From: Chloroflexota bacterium
Lineage (GTDB): Bacteria; Chloroflexota; Limnocylindria; Limnocylindrales; CSP1-4
Direction of reading: 5' to 3'
Length of the DNA stretch: 46,927 nucleotides
Assembly (NCBI GenBank): GCA_043743315.1
Contig: JAYTWS010000176.1
Location: 1-46,927 of the forward strand
Position 1 is the first letter of the stretch. Every line of letters starts with the position of its first letter. Under the pieces are notes generated by a model. That model searched no databases. It saw nothing but the letters and a program-made list of their open reading frames with translations, and was not told where the DNA came from. Below, piece after piece: positions 28,868-31,450 of the stretch. A program made the translations under genes and the position numbers.

Positions 28868-31450
28868 GTGTCCACAACCCTTGAAACCCAGATCGGTGGT
28901 CGAACGCTGACGATCGAGACGGGCAAGCTCGCCCGCCTCGCCGGTGGCGCAGTCACGATTCGCTACGGCGACACCATGGTGCTCGGCACCGCCAACCGTT
29001 CCGATCCGCGACCCGGCCTGGACTTCTTCCCGCTCACGGTCGAGTTCGAGGAGCGGATGTACGCCGCCGGCAAGATCCCGGGCGGCTTCATCAAGCGCGA
29101 AGCGCGTGCGTCAGAAGCGGCAACCCTCGCTGCTCGCCTCACGGACCGGCCGATCCGGCCGCTTTTCCCCGAGGGCTACAAGGACGACATCCAGCTCGTC
29201 ATCACCGTCCTGTCGACGGACCAGGAGAACGAGCCTGACGTCATCGGGACCGTGGCTGCCTCCGCGGCGCTGACCATCAGCGAGATCCCGTTCAGCGGGC
29301 CTGTCGGCGCCGTCCGGATCGGACGGATCGACGGTGAGTTCGTGGTCAACCCGACCTTCAGCCAGCTAGCCGACTCGGAGCTCGACCTGATCGTCTCCGG
29401 CACCCGCGACGCGATCATGATGGTCGAGGCGGGCGCCAAGCTGCTCTCCGAAGACGTCATGGCCGAGGCCATCCTCTTCGGGCACAAGGCCCTCCAGCCC
29501 CTCATCGACATCCAGCTTGAGCTCCAGAAGCTCGTCGGCAAGGCCAAGAGCACGCCGTTCCTCGAGGCCGGCACCGGCTCGGTCATCGAATTCGGCCGGG
29601 CCGCCGAGGCGGGCGAGGAATTCGTCGTCGTCGACGTCGAGACCACCGGCACGGATCCGAAGATGGCTGATCTCGTCGAGATCGCCGCGGTCAAGGTCAA
29701 GGGCGGCAAGATCACCGATCGGTGGTCCACGCTCGTGAACCCGGGACGCGCCATCGTCGGCAACCAGATGCACGGCATCAAGGACGCGGACGTCAAGAAG
29801 GCGCCAAGCCCCGCGGACGCCGCGAAGCAGGCAATCAAGTTCATCGGCAGGTCCACGGTCGTCGGCCATTCGGTCGGGTTCGATCTCGGCTTCCTCGAGG
29901 CAGCCCTGGCGGACGGCACGCACTTCGAGTCCGGCTCGTACCTGGACACGCTGACGATCGCTCGTGAGGGTTACCCCGATCTCGAGAACTACAAGCTCGA
30001 GACCCTGTCCCGATTCTTCGGCATCGAGCTGGCCCAGGCGCATCGCGCCGGACCGGACGCCGAGGCCACGGCCAACCTCCTCATCTGGTTCGGCAACGAC
30101 CTCCCGGCTCGCCTCAAGGGACTTCGCGAGGGGCTCGCCGCCTCCATCCGGGCCATCCGCTCGGGCGGGGATAGCAAGGCACTCGCGGAGGCGGCTCGCC
30201 GCGAAGCGCGTGTCAGCAAGAACCTGTTCAGCCTGATCAACAAGAAGGTTGCCCGCCAGATGGCTCTCGATGAGGGCATCCGGATGGACGGCCGCGGCCT
30301 TACGGAACTCCGCCAGATCTCGGTCGACGTCGGCGTCCTGCCGCGCGCCCATGGGTCGGGCCTGTTCACCCGTGGTGAGACCCAGGTCCTGACAGTGGCG
30401 ACGCTCGGCTCCTCGTCGGACGTCCAGCGGATTGACACGATCAGCCCGAAGACCGAGAAGAAGTACATCCACCACTACAACTTCCCGCCCTACTCCACGG
30501 GCGAGAACAAGCCGATGCGTGGCCCGAGCCGTCGCGACATCGGGCACGGGAACCTGGCCGAGCGGGCCCTCATCCCCGTGCTCCCGACGCACGAGGACTT
30601 CCCGTACGTCATCCGGCTGGTGTCCGAATGCCTGTCGTCCAACGGTTCGACATCGATGGCCTCGACCTGCGGCTCGACGCTCGCGCTCATGGACGCCGGC
30701 GTGCCGATCTCGGCCCCGGTGGCCGGCGCGGCCATGGGCTTGATCAGCGAGCCGGACGGCCGGTTCGTGGTCCTGACCGACATCCTCGGCAAGGAGGACT
30801 CGGTTGGTGACATGGACTTCAAGGTGACCGGTACGCGGGACGGCATCACCGCCCTGCAGATGGACATCAAGGTCCAGGGCATCAACGAGGCGATCATCCG
30901 TGGTGGACTCAAGCAGGCCCTTGCGGCTCGCCTCGAGATCCTCGACAAGATGACCGAAGTCATGCCCGAGACCCGTGGCCAGATGAGCGACTTCGCGCCG
31001 CGCATCACCACGATCAAGATCAACCCCGAGAAGATCCGCGAGATCATCGGGAAGGGCGGATCAATGATCCGCAAGATCCAGGAAGAGACCCAGACCGAGA
31101 TCAACGTCGAGGACGACGGTACCGTCGAGATCGCCGCCGTGAGCGGCGAGAACGCACGGAAGGCGATCCAGTGGATCGAAAGCCTCACTCGTGAGGTCGA
31201 AGTCGGCGCCCTATACCTCGGCAAGGTCACCCGGATCATGGGCTTCGGCGCCTTCGTGGAGATCCTCCCGGGCAAGGAGGGCCTCGTCCGGATCGGCGAG
31301 CTCGCCGACTACCACGTGCCGACCGTCGAAGACGTCGTGAGCGTCGGAGACGAGGTCATGGTCGTCGTGATCGAGGTGGACCGCCAGGGGCGAGTCAACC
31401 TGTCCCGCAAGGCAGCCATGCAGCGGCACCTGGCAAAGGATCCTGCCTGA
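28868..31450 (+). CDS. pnp: Polynucleotide phosphorylase with inserted DEDDh exonuclease domain
   Basis: RNase PH1 (GKIPGGFIKRE, DRPIRPLF), RNase PH2 (RMDGR, SNGSTSMAS, GDMDFK), KH (IIGKGG), S1; 860 aa. Confidence 0.97.
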   Translation: MSTTLETQIGGRTLTIETGKLARLAGGAVTIRYGDTMVLGTANRSDPRPGLDFFPLTVEFEERMYAAGKIPGGFIKREARASEAATLAARLTDRPIRPLFPEGYKDDIQLVITVLSTDQENEPDVIGTVAASAALTISEIPFSGPVGAVRIGRIDGEFVVNPTFSQLADSELDLIVSGTRDAIMMVEAGAKLLSEDVMAEAILFGHKALQPLIDIQLELQKLVGKAKSTPFLEAGTGSVIEFGRAAEAGEEFVVVDVETTGTDPKMADLVEIAAVKVKGGKITDRWSTLVNPGRAIVGNQMHGIKDADVKKAPSPADAAKQAIKFIGRSTVVGHSVGFDLGFLEAALADGTHFESGSYLDTLTIAREGYPDLENYKLETLSRFFGIELAQAHRAGPDAEATANLLIWFGNDLPARLKGLREGLAASIRAIRSGGDSKALAEAARREARVSKNLFSLINKKVARQMALDEGIRMDGRGLTELRQISVDVGVLPRAHGSGLFTRGETQVLTVATLGSSSDVQRIDTISPKTEKKYIHHYNFPPYSTGENKPMRGPSRRDIGHGNLAERALIPVLPTHEDFPYVIRLVSECLSSNGSTSMASTCGSTLALMDAGVPISAPVAGAAMGLISEPDGRFVVLTDILGKEDSVGDMDFKVTGTRDGITALQMDIKVQGINEAIIRGGLKQALAARLEILDKMTEVMPETRGQMSDFAPRITTIKINPEKIREIIGKGGSMIRKIQEETQTEINVEDDGTVEIAAVSGENARKAIQWIESLTREVEVGALYLGKVTRIMGFGAFVEILPGKEGLVRIGELADYHVPTVEDVVSVGDEVMVVVIEVDRQGRVNLSRKAAMQRHLAKDPA
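29618..30091 (+). other. DEDDh (DnaQ/RNase T-like) 3'-5' exonuclease domain within PNPase
   Basis: ExoI VVDVETTG (D256,E258), ExoII GHSVGFD (D339), YLDTL, YKLETL, ExoIII AHRAGPDA (H392,D397). Confidence 0.93.

Follow-up and report, generated by a model that had tools for sequence, protein, structure and literature searches.

A PNPase with a DEDDh exonuclease domain inserted in its helical linker is conserved in three families of one Chloroflexota class

PNPase is among the most conserved enzymes of RNA decay, and from bacteria to mitochondria its plan of five domains is regarded as fixed (PMC12599292, in excerpt). The 46,927-nucleotide stretch of Chloroflexota DNA analysed here (the window) encodes a PNPase that departs from this plan, and the departure is shared by a whole clade, in which a second nuclease domain, of another predicted chemistry, sits in the element lining the side pore of the enzyme's phosphorolytic site. 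Is such a protein real, when did it arise and what does the additional nuclease act on? The positions of the gene, its neighbours and its domains are given in Table 1.

Table 1. Features of the window around pnp; residue numbers are those of the 860-aa protein
Feature	Position	Strand	Basis
NrnA-like DHH/DHHA1 phosphoesterase, candidate nanoRNase	25496..26524	+	Pfam DHH + DHHA1; PDB matches
rpsO (ribosomal protein S15), directly upstream of pnp	28478..28747	+	ORF; Pfam Ribosomal_S15, E 9.5e-35
pnp, 860-aa PNPase with inserted DEDDh domain (stop codon included)	28868..31450	+	TIGR03591; Pfam
RNase PH domain 1 + PH_C (residues 1-215)	28868..29512	+	Pfam RNase_PH, RNase_PH_C
N-side linker + helix 1 of alpha-helical domain (residues 216-250)	29513..29617	+	AF2 helix 237-247; alignment to insert-less PNPases
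Inserted 3'-5' exonuclease domain, DEDDh (DnaQ/epsilon-PolC-DinG type) by sequence (residues 251-408)	29618..30091	+	PF00929, E 2.7e-26; NCBIfam; PDB matches
DEDDh catalytic codons	D256 29633-29635; E258 29639-29641; D339 29882-29884; H392 30041-30043; D397 30056-30058	+	
Alpha-helical domain, remainder (residues 409-478)	30092..30301	+	PF03726 model 44-80 alone, at residues 440-476; AF2 helices
RNase PH domain 2, phosphorolytic site (residues 479-700)	30302..30967	+	Pfam RNase_PH 480-613
KH domain (residues 712-771)	31001..31180	+	Pfam KH_1 714-771, E 2.4e-11
S1 domain (residues 777-848)	31196..31411	+	Pfam S1, E 9.5e-18

The gene starts with GTG and sits in the row nusA-infB-rbfA-...-truB-ribF-rpsO-pnp, which also contains the NrnA-like gene. 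Its product is identified as PNPase by NCBIfam TIGR03591 (939.2 bits against a cut-off of 525.05), matched in two stretches that are split by the insert, and Pfam finds RNase_PH twice (E 3.4e-53), RNase_PH_C twice and then KH_1 and S1. No variation among 33 orthologs is seen at residues R90, D93, R94, R97, R555, R556, S594, T595, S596, D644, D650 and K652. The last six make up the S-x-S phosphate-binding loop and the metal/catalytic set of PH2, and by motif we take them to be equivalent to the catalytic residues of the E. coli and human enzymes. The human residues are named in PMC12599292 (in excerpt). The first-pass annotation, made from the letters of the window alone, had described an 860-aa pnp at the rpsO-pnp locus whose two PH domains, KH and S1 are intact, and this description holds.

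Between PH_C and PH2 the window protein has 270 aa; four insert-less PNPases from sister families have 110-111 aa there, and four outgroups have 108-120 aa. The net gain is about 160 aa and is placed behind helix 1 of the alpha-helical linker that joins the RNase PH domains. About 41 aa of linker (209-250) remain before the insert and about 70 aa (409-478) after it; the earlier counts of 24 and 50 aa were roughly right. The match to PF03726, the PNPase helical domain, is partial and at 18.6 bits stays below its cut-off of 24.6, which is expected for a split domain. Both the AF2 helices and the alignment to insert-less PNPases have the helical domain present but split. Insertion of the DEDDh domain into the linker, rather than replacement of the linker, is confirmed, as first proposed. 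AF2 models of the window protein (pLDDT 90.8, pTM 0.83) and of an ortholog with 61% identity (pLDDT 91.3, pTM 0.84) from f4, one of the three insert-bearing families f1, f2 and f4, agree in that the last DEDDh helix continues into the helical domain. In the window protein this is helix 394-432, followed by helices 436-447 and 451-469; the f4 ortholog has helices 396-411 and 414-431. Top Foldseek matches of the window protein are PNPases (target-normalised TM 0.75-0.90). In PNPase the helical domain lies on the ring face opposite KH/S1, as the annotation had stated, and lines the side pore to the active site (PMC2723993, in excerpt).

The genome behind the window is fragmented (255 contigs, 84% complete), which could favour an artefact of assembly or binning that joined pnp to an exonuclease gene. 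GC content is flat across both insert junctions (0.65-0.69). Zero-difference contigs from two further DNA runs (29452-29698 and 29683-30442) bridge both junctions. In the class sample the insert-bearing PNPase is found in f1 (60/60 genomes), f2 (7/7) and f4 (64/66), that is in 131 of 133 sampled genomes of the three families, the single-contig genomes G179 and G090 included. At E<=1e-30 the phylum sample has the architecture in 43/43 genomes of these families and in 0/357 elsewhere, and the sister families f3 and f5 have a plain PNPase without insert. All 120 listed protein clusters (of 1264 matches), which come from several sources, carry the architecture, and a library of 1.84 billion proteins has one full-length representative plus fragments with it among the best 150 matches. 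Source names of the close relatives are Chloroflexota or Candidatus Limnocylindrales. Nine other long PNPases scanned with Pfam have no nuclease insert (0/9); several have extra S1/KH domains or extra length without a Pfam match. With the junctions spanned and relatives found, the chance of an artefact is practically nil, and the insert-bearing PNPase is confirmed as a real, old and conserved architecture. A full-text literature search found no description of a PNPase with an inserted DEDDh domain, in line with the earlier impression that it was undescribed.

On a PNPase core tree built without the insert columns, the insert-bearing proteins form one clade (SH-aLRT 100) that is sister to the insert-less PNPases of f3/f5, and on the DEDDh tree the inserts form one clade too (support 99/92). 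These trees indicate one ancient insertion, in the common ancestor of the three families of one Chloroflexota class, and the insert-bearing enzyme is a vertically inherited variant of the housekeeping PNPase. The insert is under purifying selection: in seven chosen pairs its dN/dS is 0.06-0.19, as compared to 0.015-0.11 in the PH cores. The N-side linker (residues 216-250) is poorly conserved (0.10-1.08, seven pairs). The closest companions of the inserts on the DEDDh tree are mid-size and short stand-alone DEDDh proteins, not the DinG exonuclease domains of the class. Common origin of the inserts and the DinG exonuclease domains is neither supported nor rejected by the AU test (p 0.126).

Is the inserted domain a complete nuclease? 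PF00929 (RNase_T) matches residues 253-405 over its whole length (model 1-164 of 164; 93.5 bits against a cut-off of 24), and the E-values of the insert alone, 1e-26 to 1e-40 with Pfam and NCBIfam, exclude a chance match. The insert is 157-160 aa long in 33 orthologs. The four acidic residues and the His of ExoI, ExoII and ExoIII are all present, and D256, E258, D339, H392 and D397, read correctly at first pass, are the same in 33/33 orthologs, even where domain identity falls to about 46%. Both catalytic centres, PH2 and DEDDh, keep every canonical residue. The ExoII motif of the window protein is H-S-V-G-F-D instead of the usual HNxxFD, also as first noted. The S, shared with nine other orthologs of the 33, could mean that the insert is catalytically silent or has a structural or regulatory role, e.g. 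as a docking or nucleic-acid-binding module. We consider this very improbable, as the canonical H-N-x-x-F-D is kept in the other 23 orthologs, the five DEDDh residues do not vary across three families and dN/dS is low.

As to kinship, the top NCBIfam models for the insert are PRK07883 (DEDD exonuclease), DinG-exo and PolC-exo. Its PDB sequence matches include PolC (2p1j, 9qpc; best E 2.9e-21) and DinG (8zef; E 1.4e-15). No Orn chain is among its 12 PDB matches, the match to RNase T (2f96) is weak (E 2e-5, with no single stretch that passes by itself) and the 25 NCBIfam matches listed, out of 30, include no model of Orn or RNase T. Judged by sequence, the insert is a member of the epsilon/PolC/DinG-type DEDDh group and not of that of RNase T or Orn. 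Its nearest families (PolC and epsilon proofreaders, DinG, PRK07883) are DNA enzymes, which counts against a role on RNA. Three identities were rejected. The insert is not an Rrp6/RNase D domain (DEDDy + HRDC), as its ExoIII residue is His (H392) and Pfam gives RNase_T instead of PF01612/HRDC; it is not Orn or RNase T, given the matches above; and it is not a DnaQ-DinG, as helicase domains are absent and residues ~1-190 of f3 DinG alone match, inside pnp. Enzymes of the Orn/RNase T kind build their substrate site as obligate homodimers.

Full DnaQ-DinG is present in 63/66 genomes of f3 and in 1/1 of f5, and in 5/5 such genomes checked it is the sole strong DEDDh domain. In f1, f2 and f4 the exonuclease part alone of a DnaQ-DinG query matches, and that match is the one inside pnp; Helicase_C_2, which the f3 DinG query itself carries, was found in 0/5 insert-bearing genomes. 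DEDDh-on-DinG and DEDDh-in-PNPase are complementary across families. Regarding the insert as the functional heir of DinG draws on this distribution only, because the inserts do not group with DinG exonuclease domains. In seven of ten insert-bearing genomes (G000, G038, G003, G090, G006, G009, G015) the pnp copy is the only PF00929 match and Orn/RNase T was not found outside pnp; the other three (G179, G011, G012) have a further PF00929 match. No RNase R/II (RNB) turned up in the class (0/101 genomes), and no RNase D-type PF01612 in 0/5 genomes checked has been seen either. RNase PH is present in 117/121. The 3' exoribonucleases of the lineage are only the phosphorolytic PNPase and RNase PH, plus the NrnA-like enzyme. 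It is important to note that RNase R/II is missing class-wide, insert-less families included, and by itself gives no explanation of the insertion. The NrnA-like gene, found at the same position upstream of pnp in G011, G090, G003 and G038, matches 5jju (Rv2837c) and 5cet (NrnA) in PDB, both with E 1.5e-33, but reaches just 80.7 bits against the cut-off of 350 of the NCBIfam NrnA equivalog. A script test of the tRNAs of G000 found CCA encoded in 33 of 36 aragorn calls; the remainder includes one call with CCA one base before the called end and one false positive inside pnp. With an encoded CCA, 3' trailers are trimmed by exonucleases, and such trimming must therefore take place in this genome.

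We propose that the insert is a hydrolytic 3'-5' exonuclease acting on RNA beside the phosphorolytic core, with a probability of roughly 0.55. If this is true, the PNPase trimer would have, on its face opposite KH/S1, three metal-dependent sites of hydrolytic 3'-exonuclease, next to the side pore to the phosphorolytic site. The helix running on into the helical domain would hold them in place. These sites may act on RNA 3' ends that are handled badly by phosphorolysis, or under limiting phosphate. Candidate tasks are the trimming of stable-RNA precursors, their quality control and the removal of stalled or short products. The setting would be a lineage without RNase R/II or RNase D, in which RNase T/Orn is unseen in most genomes checked and DnaQ-DinG has been lost. 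There is a precedent in Listeria, where a DinG-type DEDDh domain is a 3'-5' exoribonuclease on unprocessed rRNA (PMC12774634, in excerpt).

The main rival to an RNA exonuclease is a DNA 3'-5' exonuclease, with which PNPase would double as an enzyme of DNA-end processing or repair. Its substrates would be ssDNA 3' tails and R-loop or RNA-DNA hybrid ends, and it would replace the nuclease half of the lost DnaQ-DinG. The nearest families and PDB matches given above and the complementary distribution all favour this, and PNPase has DNA-repair roles in Bacillus and mycobacteria. B. subtilis DinG prefers ssDNA, which it degrades far better than ssRNA, does not cut linear ssRNA with Mg2+ and removes R-loops (PMC12525004, in excerpt), and the DinG of S. 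aureus takes part in DNA crosslink repair, for which its nuclease is needed (PMC12345164, in excerpt). However, the insert is housed in an RNA enzyme that retains KH and S1 and is encoded in a translation/RNA operon, the Listeria DinG exonuclease acts on pre-rRNA in vivo (PMC12774634, in excerpt), the helicase partner needed for DinG repair was found in 0/5 genomes as described and the inserts stand apart from DinG domains on the DEDDh tree. We therefore regard a DNA exonuclease as rather unlikely. A dedicated Orn-like nanoRNase, finishing the 2-5 nt limit products that leave the PH ring, is quite improbable. PNPase does leave a short oligonucleotide product (PMC11572968, in excerpt), on the exit face the helical domain borders the pore that leads to the active site (PMC2723993, in excerpt) and seven of ten genomes lack a detected Orn/RNase T outside pnp. 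But the NrnA-like gene is conserved in the same row, the insert has no Orn match and a weak one to RNase T, and in the insert-less sister families the same genes plus DinG suffice. The earlier idea that the insert might finish oligoribonucleotides loses force with this NrnA-like gene. Returning to an exonuclease on RNA, we can suggest tentatively that the PNPase-embedded DEDDh is the chief hydrolytic 3'-5' exonuclease for long RNA, or even the sole one. The protein would then be a two-chemistry 'bacterial exosome', with a still-active phosphorolytic ring beside a DEDD hydrolase, that may have taken over the stable-RNA quality control done by DnaQ-DinG in sister lineages.

The restriction to one clade, the complementary distribution with DnaQ-DinG and the class-wide lack of RNase R/II go beyond what the window alone had suggested. 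Should the insert be active on RNA, a PH ring and a DEDD hydrolase would be joined covalently in a bacterial protein. Such a pairing is otherwise known from the eukaryotic exosome, but here the ring would keep its own catalysis, and the protein would be a natural system for studying division and coupling of phosphorolytic and hydrolytic 3' decay. If the DEDDh domain were the main hydrolase for long RNA, RNA decay would be freed from phosphate supply in a class without RNase R/II. An insert acting on DNA would give PNPase a closer link to DNA-end processing than in any case known so far. How is structured RNA degraded in bacteria without RNase R/II? And what is the real role of the exonuclease half of DnaQ-DinG, given that DnaQ-DinG and the insert replace each other across sister families?

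As compared to known systems, the window PNPase shares with canonical PNPases (E. coli, S. antibioticus, C. crescentus; PDB 7ogl, 4aim, 3gcm, 1e3p) the order PH1-helical linker-PH2-KH-S1, all phosphorolytic residues and the rpsO-pnp locus, and differs in about 160 extra residues that form a second, predicted hydrolytic nuclease fold in the helical linker. The DnaQ-DinG proteins (S. aureus, B. subtilis, L. monocytogenes; PDB 8zef; f3/f5 copies) have an exonuclease of the same DEDDh subgroup, 42-53% identical to the insert in the f3 proteins. The host of the insert is instead a PNPase without helicase, and the two are separate on the tree, with a common clade not rejected. The PolC exonuclease is the best sequence match of the insert among solved structures and is likewise embedded in another enzyme's domain, the PHP domain of PolC, but it is the proofreader of a DNA polymerase and not part of an RNA phosphorylase. 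The eukaryotic exosome combines a PH-domain ring with a DEDD-superfamily hydrolytic 3' exonuclease (Rrp6; also Rrp44), and the parallel drawn at first pass stands as an analogy only. Rrp6 is a DEDDy enzyme with HRDC and a separate subunit on the cap side of a catalytically dead ring, whereas the ring of the window PNPase keeps its phosphorolytic residues and its nuclease is DEDDh, covalent and predicted to lie opposite KH/S1. The RNA degradosome of C. crescentus is non-covalent and scaffold-mediated, and its RNase D is DEDDy, unlike the covalent DEDDh insert. It is similar in bringing PNPase and a DEDD-family 3' exonuclease, RNase D, into one assembly, on an RNase E scaffold (PMC4245959, in excerpt). 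Finally, in Cas2-DEDDh fusions (PDB 8fy9, 8fyc; E ~1e-11 to 1e-12) the same DEDDh subgroup is fused to a nucleic-acid enzyme, there as a terminal fusion in CRISPR adaptation and here as an internal insertion in a PNPase of RNA decay.

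By every available sequence test, the pnp product belongs to both the PNPase and the DEDDh families. Specifically, it scores 939 bits against the PNPase equivalog model TIGR03591 (cut-off 525), with the match split into two stretches, and Pfam finds RNase_PH and RNase_PH_C twice each together with KH_1 and S1. Between the PNPase halves lies an RNase_T (DEDDh) domain at residues 253-405, matched over model positions 1-164 of 164 (E 2.7e-26), and the catalytic residues D256, E258, D339, H392 and D397 are all present. The first-pass annotation, which had described a PNPase carrying an intact DEDDh domain, is confirmed by these model matches and residues. 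Judged by the membership tests, the protein is no DinG, Orn, RNase T or Rrp6/RNase D. The PNPase helical-domain model of Pfam is matched by its second half alone (residues 440-476), and in the alignment to insert-less PNPases the extra block starts directly past the first helix of that domain. The aligned stretch from PH_C to PH2 measures 270 aa in the window's PNPase, as against 110-111 aa in four PNPases of the insert-less sister families f3 and f5 and 108-120 aa in four outgroup PNPases. The block has thus been added to the linker, and the earlier view of an insertion rather than a replacement holds. GC content shows no step at either junction. AF2 models of the window's protein (pLDDT 90.8, pTM 0.83) and of an ortholog from the insert-bearing family f4 (61% identity; pLDDT 91.3, pTM 0.84) both show the DEDDh alpha/beta fold, whose last helix, bearing H392 and D397, extends into the helical domain (394-432 in the window's protein; 396-411 and 414-431 in the f4 ortholog). 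The top PDB matches of the whole model in Foldseek are PNPases.

The gene stands at the end of the row ispG, nusA, infB, rbfA, DHH/DHHA1 (NrnA-like), truB, ribF, rpsO and pnp; features with coordinates are collected in the table. An Rfam scan of the whole window gave no match, and promoter and terminator scans around pnp gave nothing exceeding shuffled expectation.

Features of the window around pnp
Feature	Position (nt)	Strand	Remarks
NrnA-like DHH/DHHA1 gene	25496-26524	+	between rbfA and truB, four genes upstream of pnp
ribF ORF	27511-28326	+	271 aa; FAD synthetase domain is the sole match; no riboflavin kinase domain at E<=1e-5
pnp	28868-31450	+	860 aa, GTG start
aragorn "tRNA-Thr"	29900-29977		no CCA; inside the DEDDh coding part of pnp; read as a false positive
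pnp-asd gap	31451-32156		~700 nt; no convincing gene, no Rfam match
Tandem repeat in gap	31476-31572		46-nt x2.1
Repeat in gap	31600-31683		18/36-nt x4.5
UDG-superfamily ORF	33098-34108	+	C-terminal Ala/Glu/Pro-rich tail
Tandem repeat in UDG-superfamily ORF	33841-33975		15-nt x9; source of the tail

An assembly chimera or other artefact is rejected by the clade-wide spread of the architecture, its several sources and the contigs that bridge the junctions. Two further DNA runs supply contigs that match 29452-29698 and 29683-30442 with zero differences, bridging both insert junctions, and the same architecture recurs in the families f1 (that of the window), f2 and f4, so that the fusion reported in the first-pass annotation is not a product of assembly. 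RNA-library contigs from the runs X15 and X17 lie on pnp at 85-99% likeness, one of them spanning the left junction in a relative; since such contigs are no proof of transcription, we make no claim about expression. Residues 215-470, used as the query in a word-indexed search, gave 1264 matches. All 120 listed have RNase_T and RNase_PH, are mostly ~860 aa long with 70-92% identity in the query region, and come from several sources on contigs of up to 1.33 Mb. Where a source name is given for these listed relatives it is Chloroflexota or Candidatus Limnocylindrales, apart from one partial protein labelled Saccharimonadia.

Among 201 genomes of the window's class, a query spanning the insert junctions matched in 60/60 genomes of f1, 7/7 of f2 (end to end) and 64/66 of f4, where three frames are truncated and two genomes gave no match. 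The f1 matches among those listed are end to end except in the genome G152, where the match, in a 429-aa frame, breaks off at query residue 216; the listing leaves out another 60 match rows. In f3 (62/66) and f5 (1/1) the exonuclease part alone was matched, in a different gene. Note that the class tallies include the unpublished genomes G087, G096, G159 and G123 (f4) and G106, G091, G112, G067 and G151 (f3), without which this query gives 60/62 in f4 and 57/61 in f3; unpublished G562 (f4) was counted in the RNase PH tally alone. These unpublished genomes entered the analysis as counts, and the sequences compared come from the others. In four genomes the pnp match ends inside or just past the insert, with frames of 429, 410, 792 and 448 aa (G152:C1:2220198-2220845; G105:C63; G195:C1:531225-531752; G162:C7:469160-469483), for which a contig end, a frameshift or a split gene is a possible cause. 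At E<=1e-30, a phylum sample of 401 genomes showed the architecture in every member of f1, f2 and f4 (43/43) and in none of the other genomes (0/357).

When 1.84 billion representatives were scanned without a profile, the best 150 of 53,546 matches included one full-length protein (P0121, 864 aa, 69% identity) and fragments; distant or independent fusions of a DEDDh domain into PNPase were not seen among these 150. A Pfam scan of nine other long PNPases from the same best 150 of 53,546 found no nuclease insert; their Pfam-named extras are S1 and KH domains, and the remaining extra length has no Pfam match. In three PNPases, P0131, P0135 and P0190, either S1 (914 and 983 aa) or KH (944 aa) is present three times. 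In another, P0147 (899 aa), ~160 extra residues sit at the same place as the insert, between PH_C (residue 208) and the helical domain (368-445), and by eye resemble additional copies of helical-domain motifs. The PNPase linker may be a site prone to expansion.

Conservation was followed in 33 orthologs (f1: 17, window included; f2: 2; f4: 14). None of the 33 departs from the five DEDDh residues or from the PNPase catalytic residues, the insert keeps a length of 157-160 aa, and the ExoII motif reads H-[N/S]-x-x-F-D, with N in 23 and S in 10. Our results demonstrate that a single conserved polypeptide holds two complete catalytic centres. Compared with f4, the insert of the window has a mean identity of 46% and the PH domains 67-74%. 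In seven pairs of our choosing, Nei-Gojobori dN/dS was 0.06-0.19 for the insert versus 0.015-0.11 for the PH cores, 0.10-0.41 for the C-side helical remnant and up to ~1 for the N-side linker. That the insert is a catalytically silent ornament is, with its five residues invariant, very improbable.

A quick LG+G4 tree of the PNPase core, with the insert columns left out, comprised 40 rows: 18 of the 33 insert-bearing orthologs, 4 of the 5 f3/f5 sequences and 18 hand-picked outgroups. The locus L043, having no frame that passed the motif filter, stayed outside it, and the protein P0125, included as an outgroup, was placed within f3. All insert-bearing PNPases fall into a single clade (SH-aLRT 100), with the f3/f5 PNPases as its sister group (95). 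A careful tree of DEDDh domains (76 rows, 175 columns), whose comparison set was 40 domains hand-picked from 96 matches plus 3 from earlier loci, also unites the inserts (99/92), with the same division into f4 and f1+f2. This pattern fits a single insertion in an ancestor shared by f1, f2 and f4, with vertical descent thereafter.

The f3/f5 gene matched by the exonuclease part is DnaQ-DinG, a protein of ~890 aa with RNase_T at its N-terminus and Helicase_C_2 at its C-terminus. The f3/f5 PNPases are ordinary and align to residues 4-228 and 454-851 of the window's PNPase. When DnaQ-DinG served as query, full-length copies or large fragments were found in f3 (63/66) and f5 (1/1). In f1 (60/60), f2 (7/7) and f4 (64/66) the first ~165-190 residues alone match, at 40-53% identity, every listed match lying inside pnp; without the unpublished genomes the tallies are 58/61 in f3 and 60/62 in f4. 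A tblastn search of the window's own genome gave the same picture, the exonuclease part alone, inside pnp. A search for Helicase_C_2 in five insert-bearing genomes, two of which are single contigs, found none (0/5). Because the DnaQ-DinG and Helicase_C_2 searches matched the pnp insert or nothing, we regard the lineage with the insert as one without DinG, an absence that does not show descent of the insert from DinG. PF00929 has one strong copy, on DinG, in 5/5 f3/f5 genomes; in 7/10 insert-bearing genomes the pnp copy is the only one, extra copies occurring in G179, G011 and G012. Frames of DnaQ-DinG size that carry PF00929 are common in other parts of the phylum.

The DEDDh tree does not support an origin of the insert by transfer of the DinG exonuclease domain of this class into pnp; in it the inserts join stand-alone DEDDh proteins of short and middle size, away from the DinG exonuclease domains. 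Forcing the inserts into a clade with the class's DinG domains cost 17.7 log-likelihood units, and the AU test did not reject this arrangement (p 0.126). Two further, very divergent DEDDh domains, G012:C27:1421-1891 (locus L070, 667-aa frame) and G011:C2:301392-301853 (locus L083, 206-aa frame), form long branches in the tree; L070 sits on a 2-kb contig and is possibly a binning stray.

In 101 genomes of the class, of which 99 are of high quality, no RNB protein (RNase R / RNase II) was found (0/101), with control genomes matching; 3' RNA decay in this class seems to proceed without RNase R/II. PF01612 (RNase D, NrnC) was found in 0/5 insert-bearing genomes searched and gave weak matches in 2/5 f3/f5 genomes, in frames of ~1000 aa. 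RNase PH is present in 117/121 genomes of the class, and its loss is accordingly rejected as an explanation of the insert. It was not found in the window's genome, G000, an absence best put down to 84% completeness. In this genome CCA is encoded in 33/36 aragorn tRNA calls by the script's test, and in one further call (Leu, C33) CCA lies one base ahead of the called end. On the searches run, insert-bearing genomes have two phosphorolytic 3' exoribonucleases and a candidate nanoRNase, and most of them have no DEDD-superfamily nuclease other than the DEDDh insert.

The candidate nanoRNase is the NrnA-like protein, which matches M. tuberculosis Rv2837c / NrnA structures (E 1.5e-33) and scores under the NCBIfam NrnA cut-off; its gene adjoins the pnp row also in G011, G090, G003 and G038. 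With such a gene already in the pnp operon, the earlier idea that the insert finishes oligoribonucleotides is weakened, and a pure nanoRNase is an improbable role for it.

We consider it likelier, with a probability of roughly 0.55, that the insert provides phosphate-independent trimming or degradation of RNA 3' ends by three hydrolytic sites on the exit face of the trimer. According to PMC2723993, the PNPase helical domain is dynamic, lies on the ring face opposite S1/KH and helps to form a pore that gives another way into the active site, one probably taken by NDP and phosphate. The three sites would be held there on a helical stalk, and the KH/S1 domains and the ring would provide substrate affinity and locality. 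PMC12774634 describes Listeria DinG as a 3'-5' exoribonuclease with unprocessed rRNA as its substrate, so DinG-type DEDDh domains can act as RNA enzymes in vivo. Two other papers describe a B. subtilis DinG that prefers ssDNA and RNA in hybrids (PMC12525004) and an S. aureus DinG that works in crosslink repair (PMC12345164). Action of the insert on DNA or hybrid ends is a possible though rather unlikely alternative. The predicted RNA function of the insert is worth bench testing.

No description of a PNPase-DEDDh fusion was found in open full-text literature (subscription-only papers were outside the scope), and as far as that literature shows the fusion is undescribed, as the first-pass annotation had supposed. 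Databases name the insert-bearing protein 'polyribonucleotide nucleotidyltransferase', 'exonuclease domain-containing protein' or 'DNA polymerase III epsilon subunit family exonuclease', and as far as we have seen these sequences are public yet unremarked. The PNPase with the insert is a real, ancient and clade-wide variant of a known enzyme. Its proposed parallel with the exosome and Rrp6 stands as a functional analogy only. The pairing of PNPase with RNase D in Caulobacter is likewise comparable in function only.
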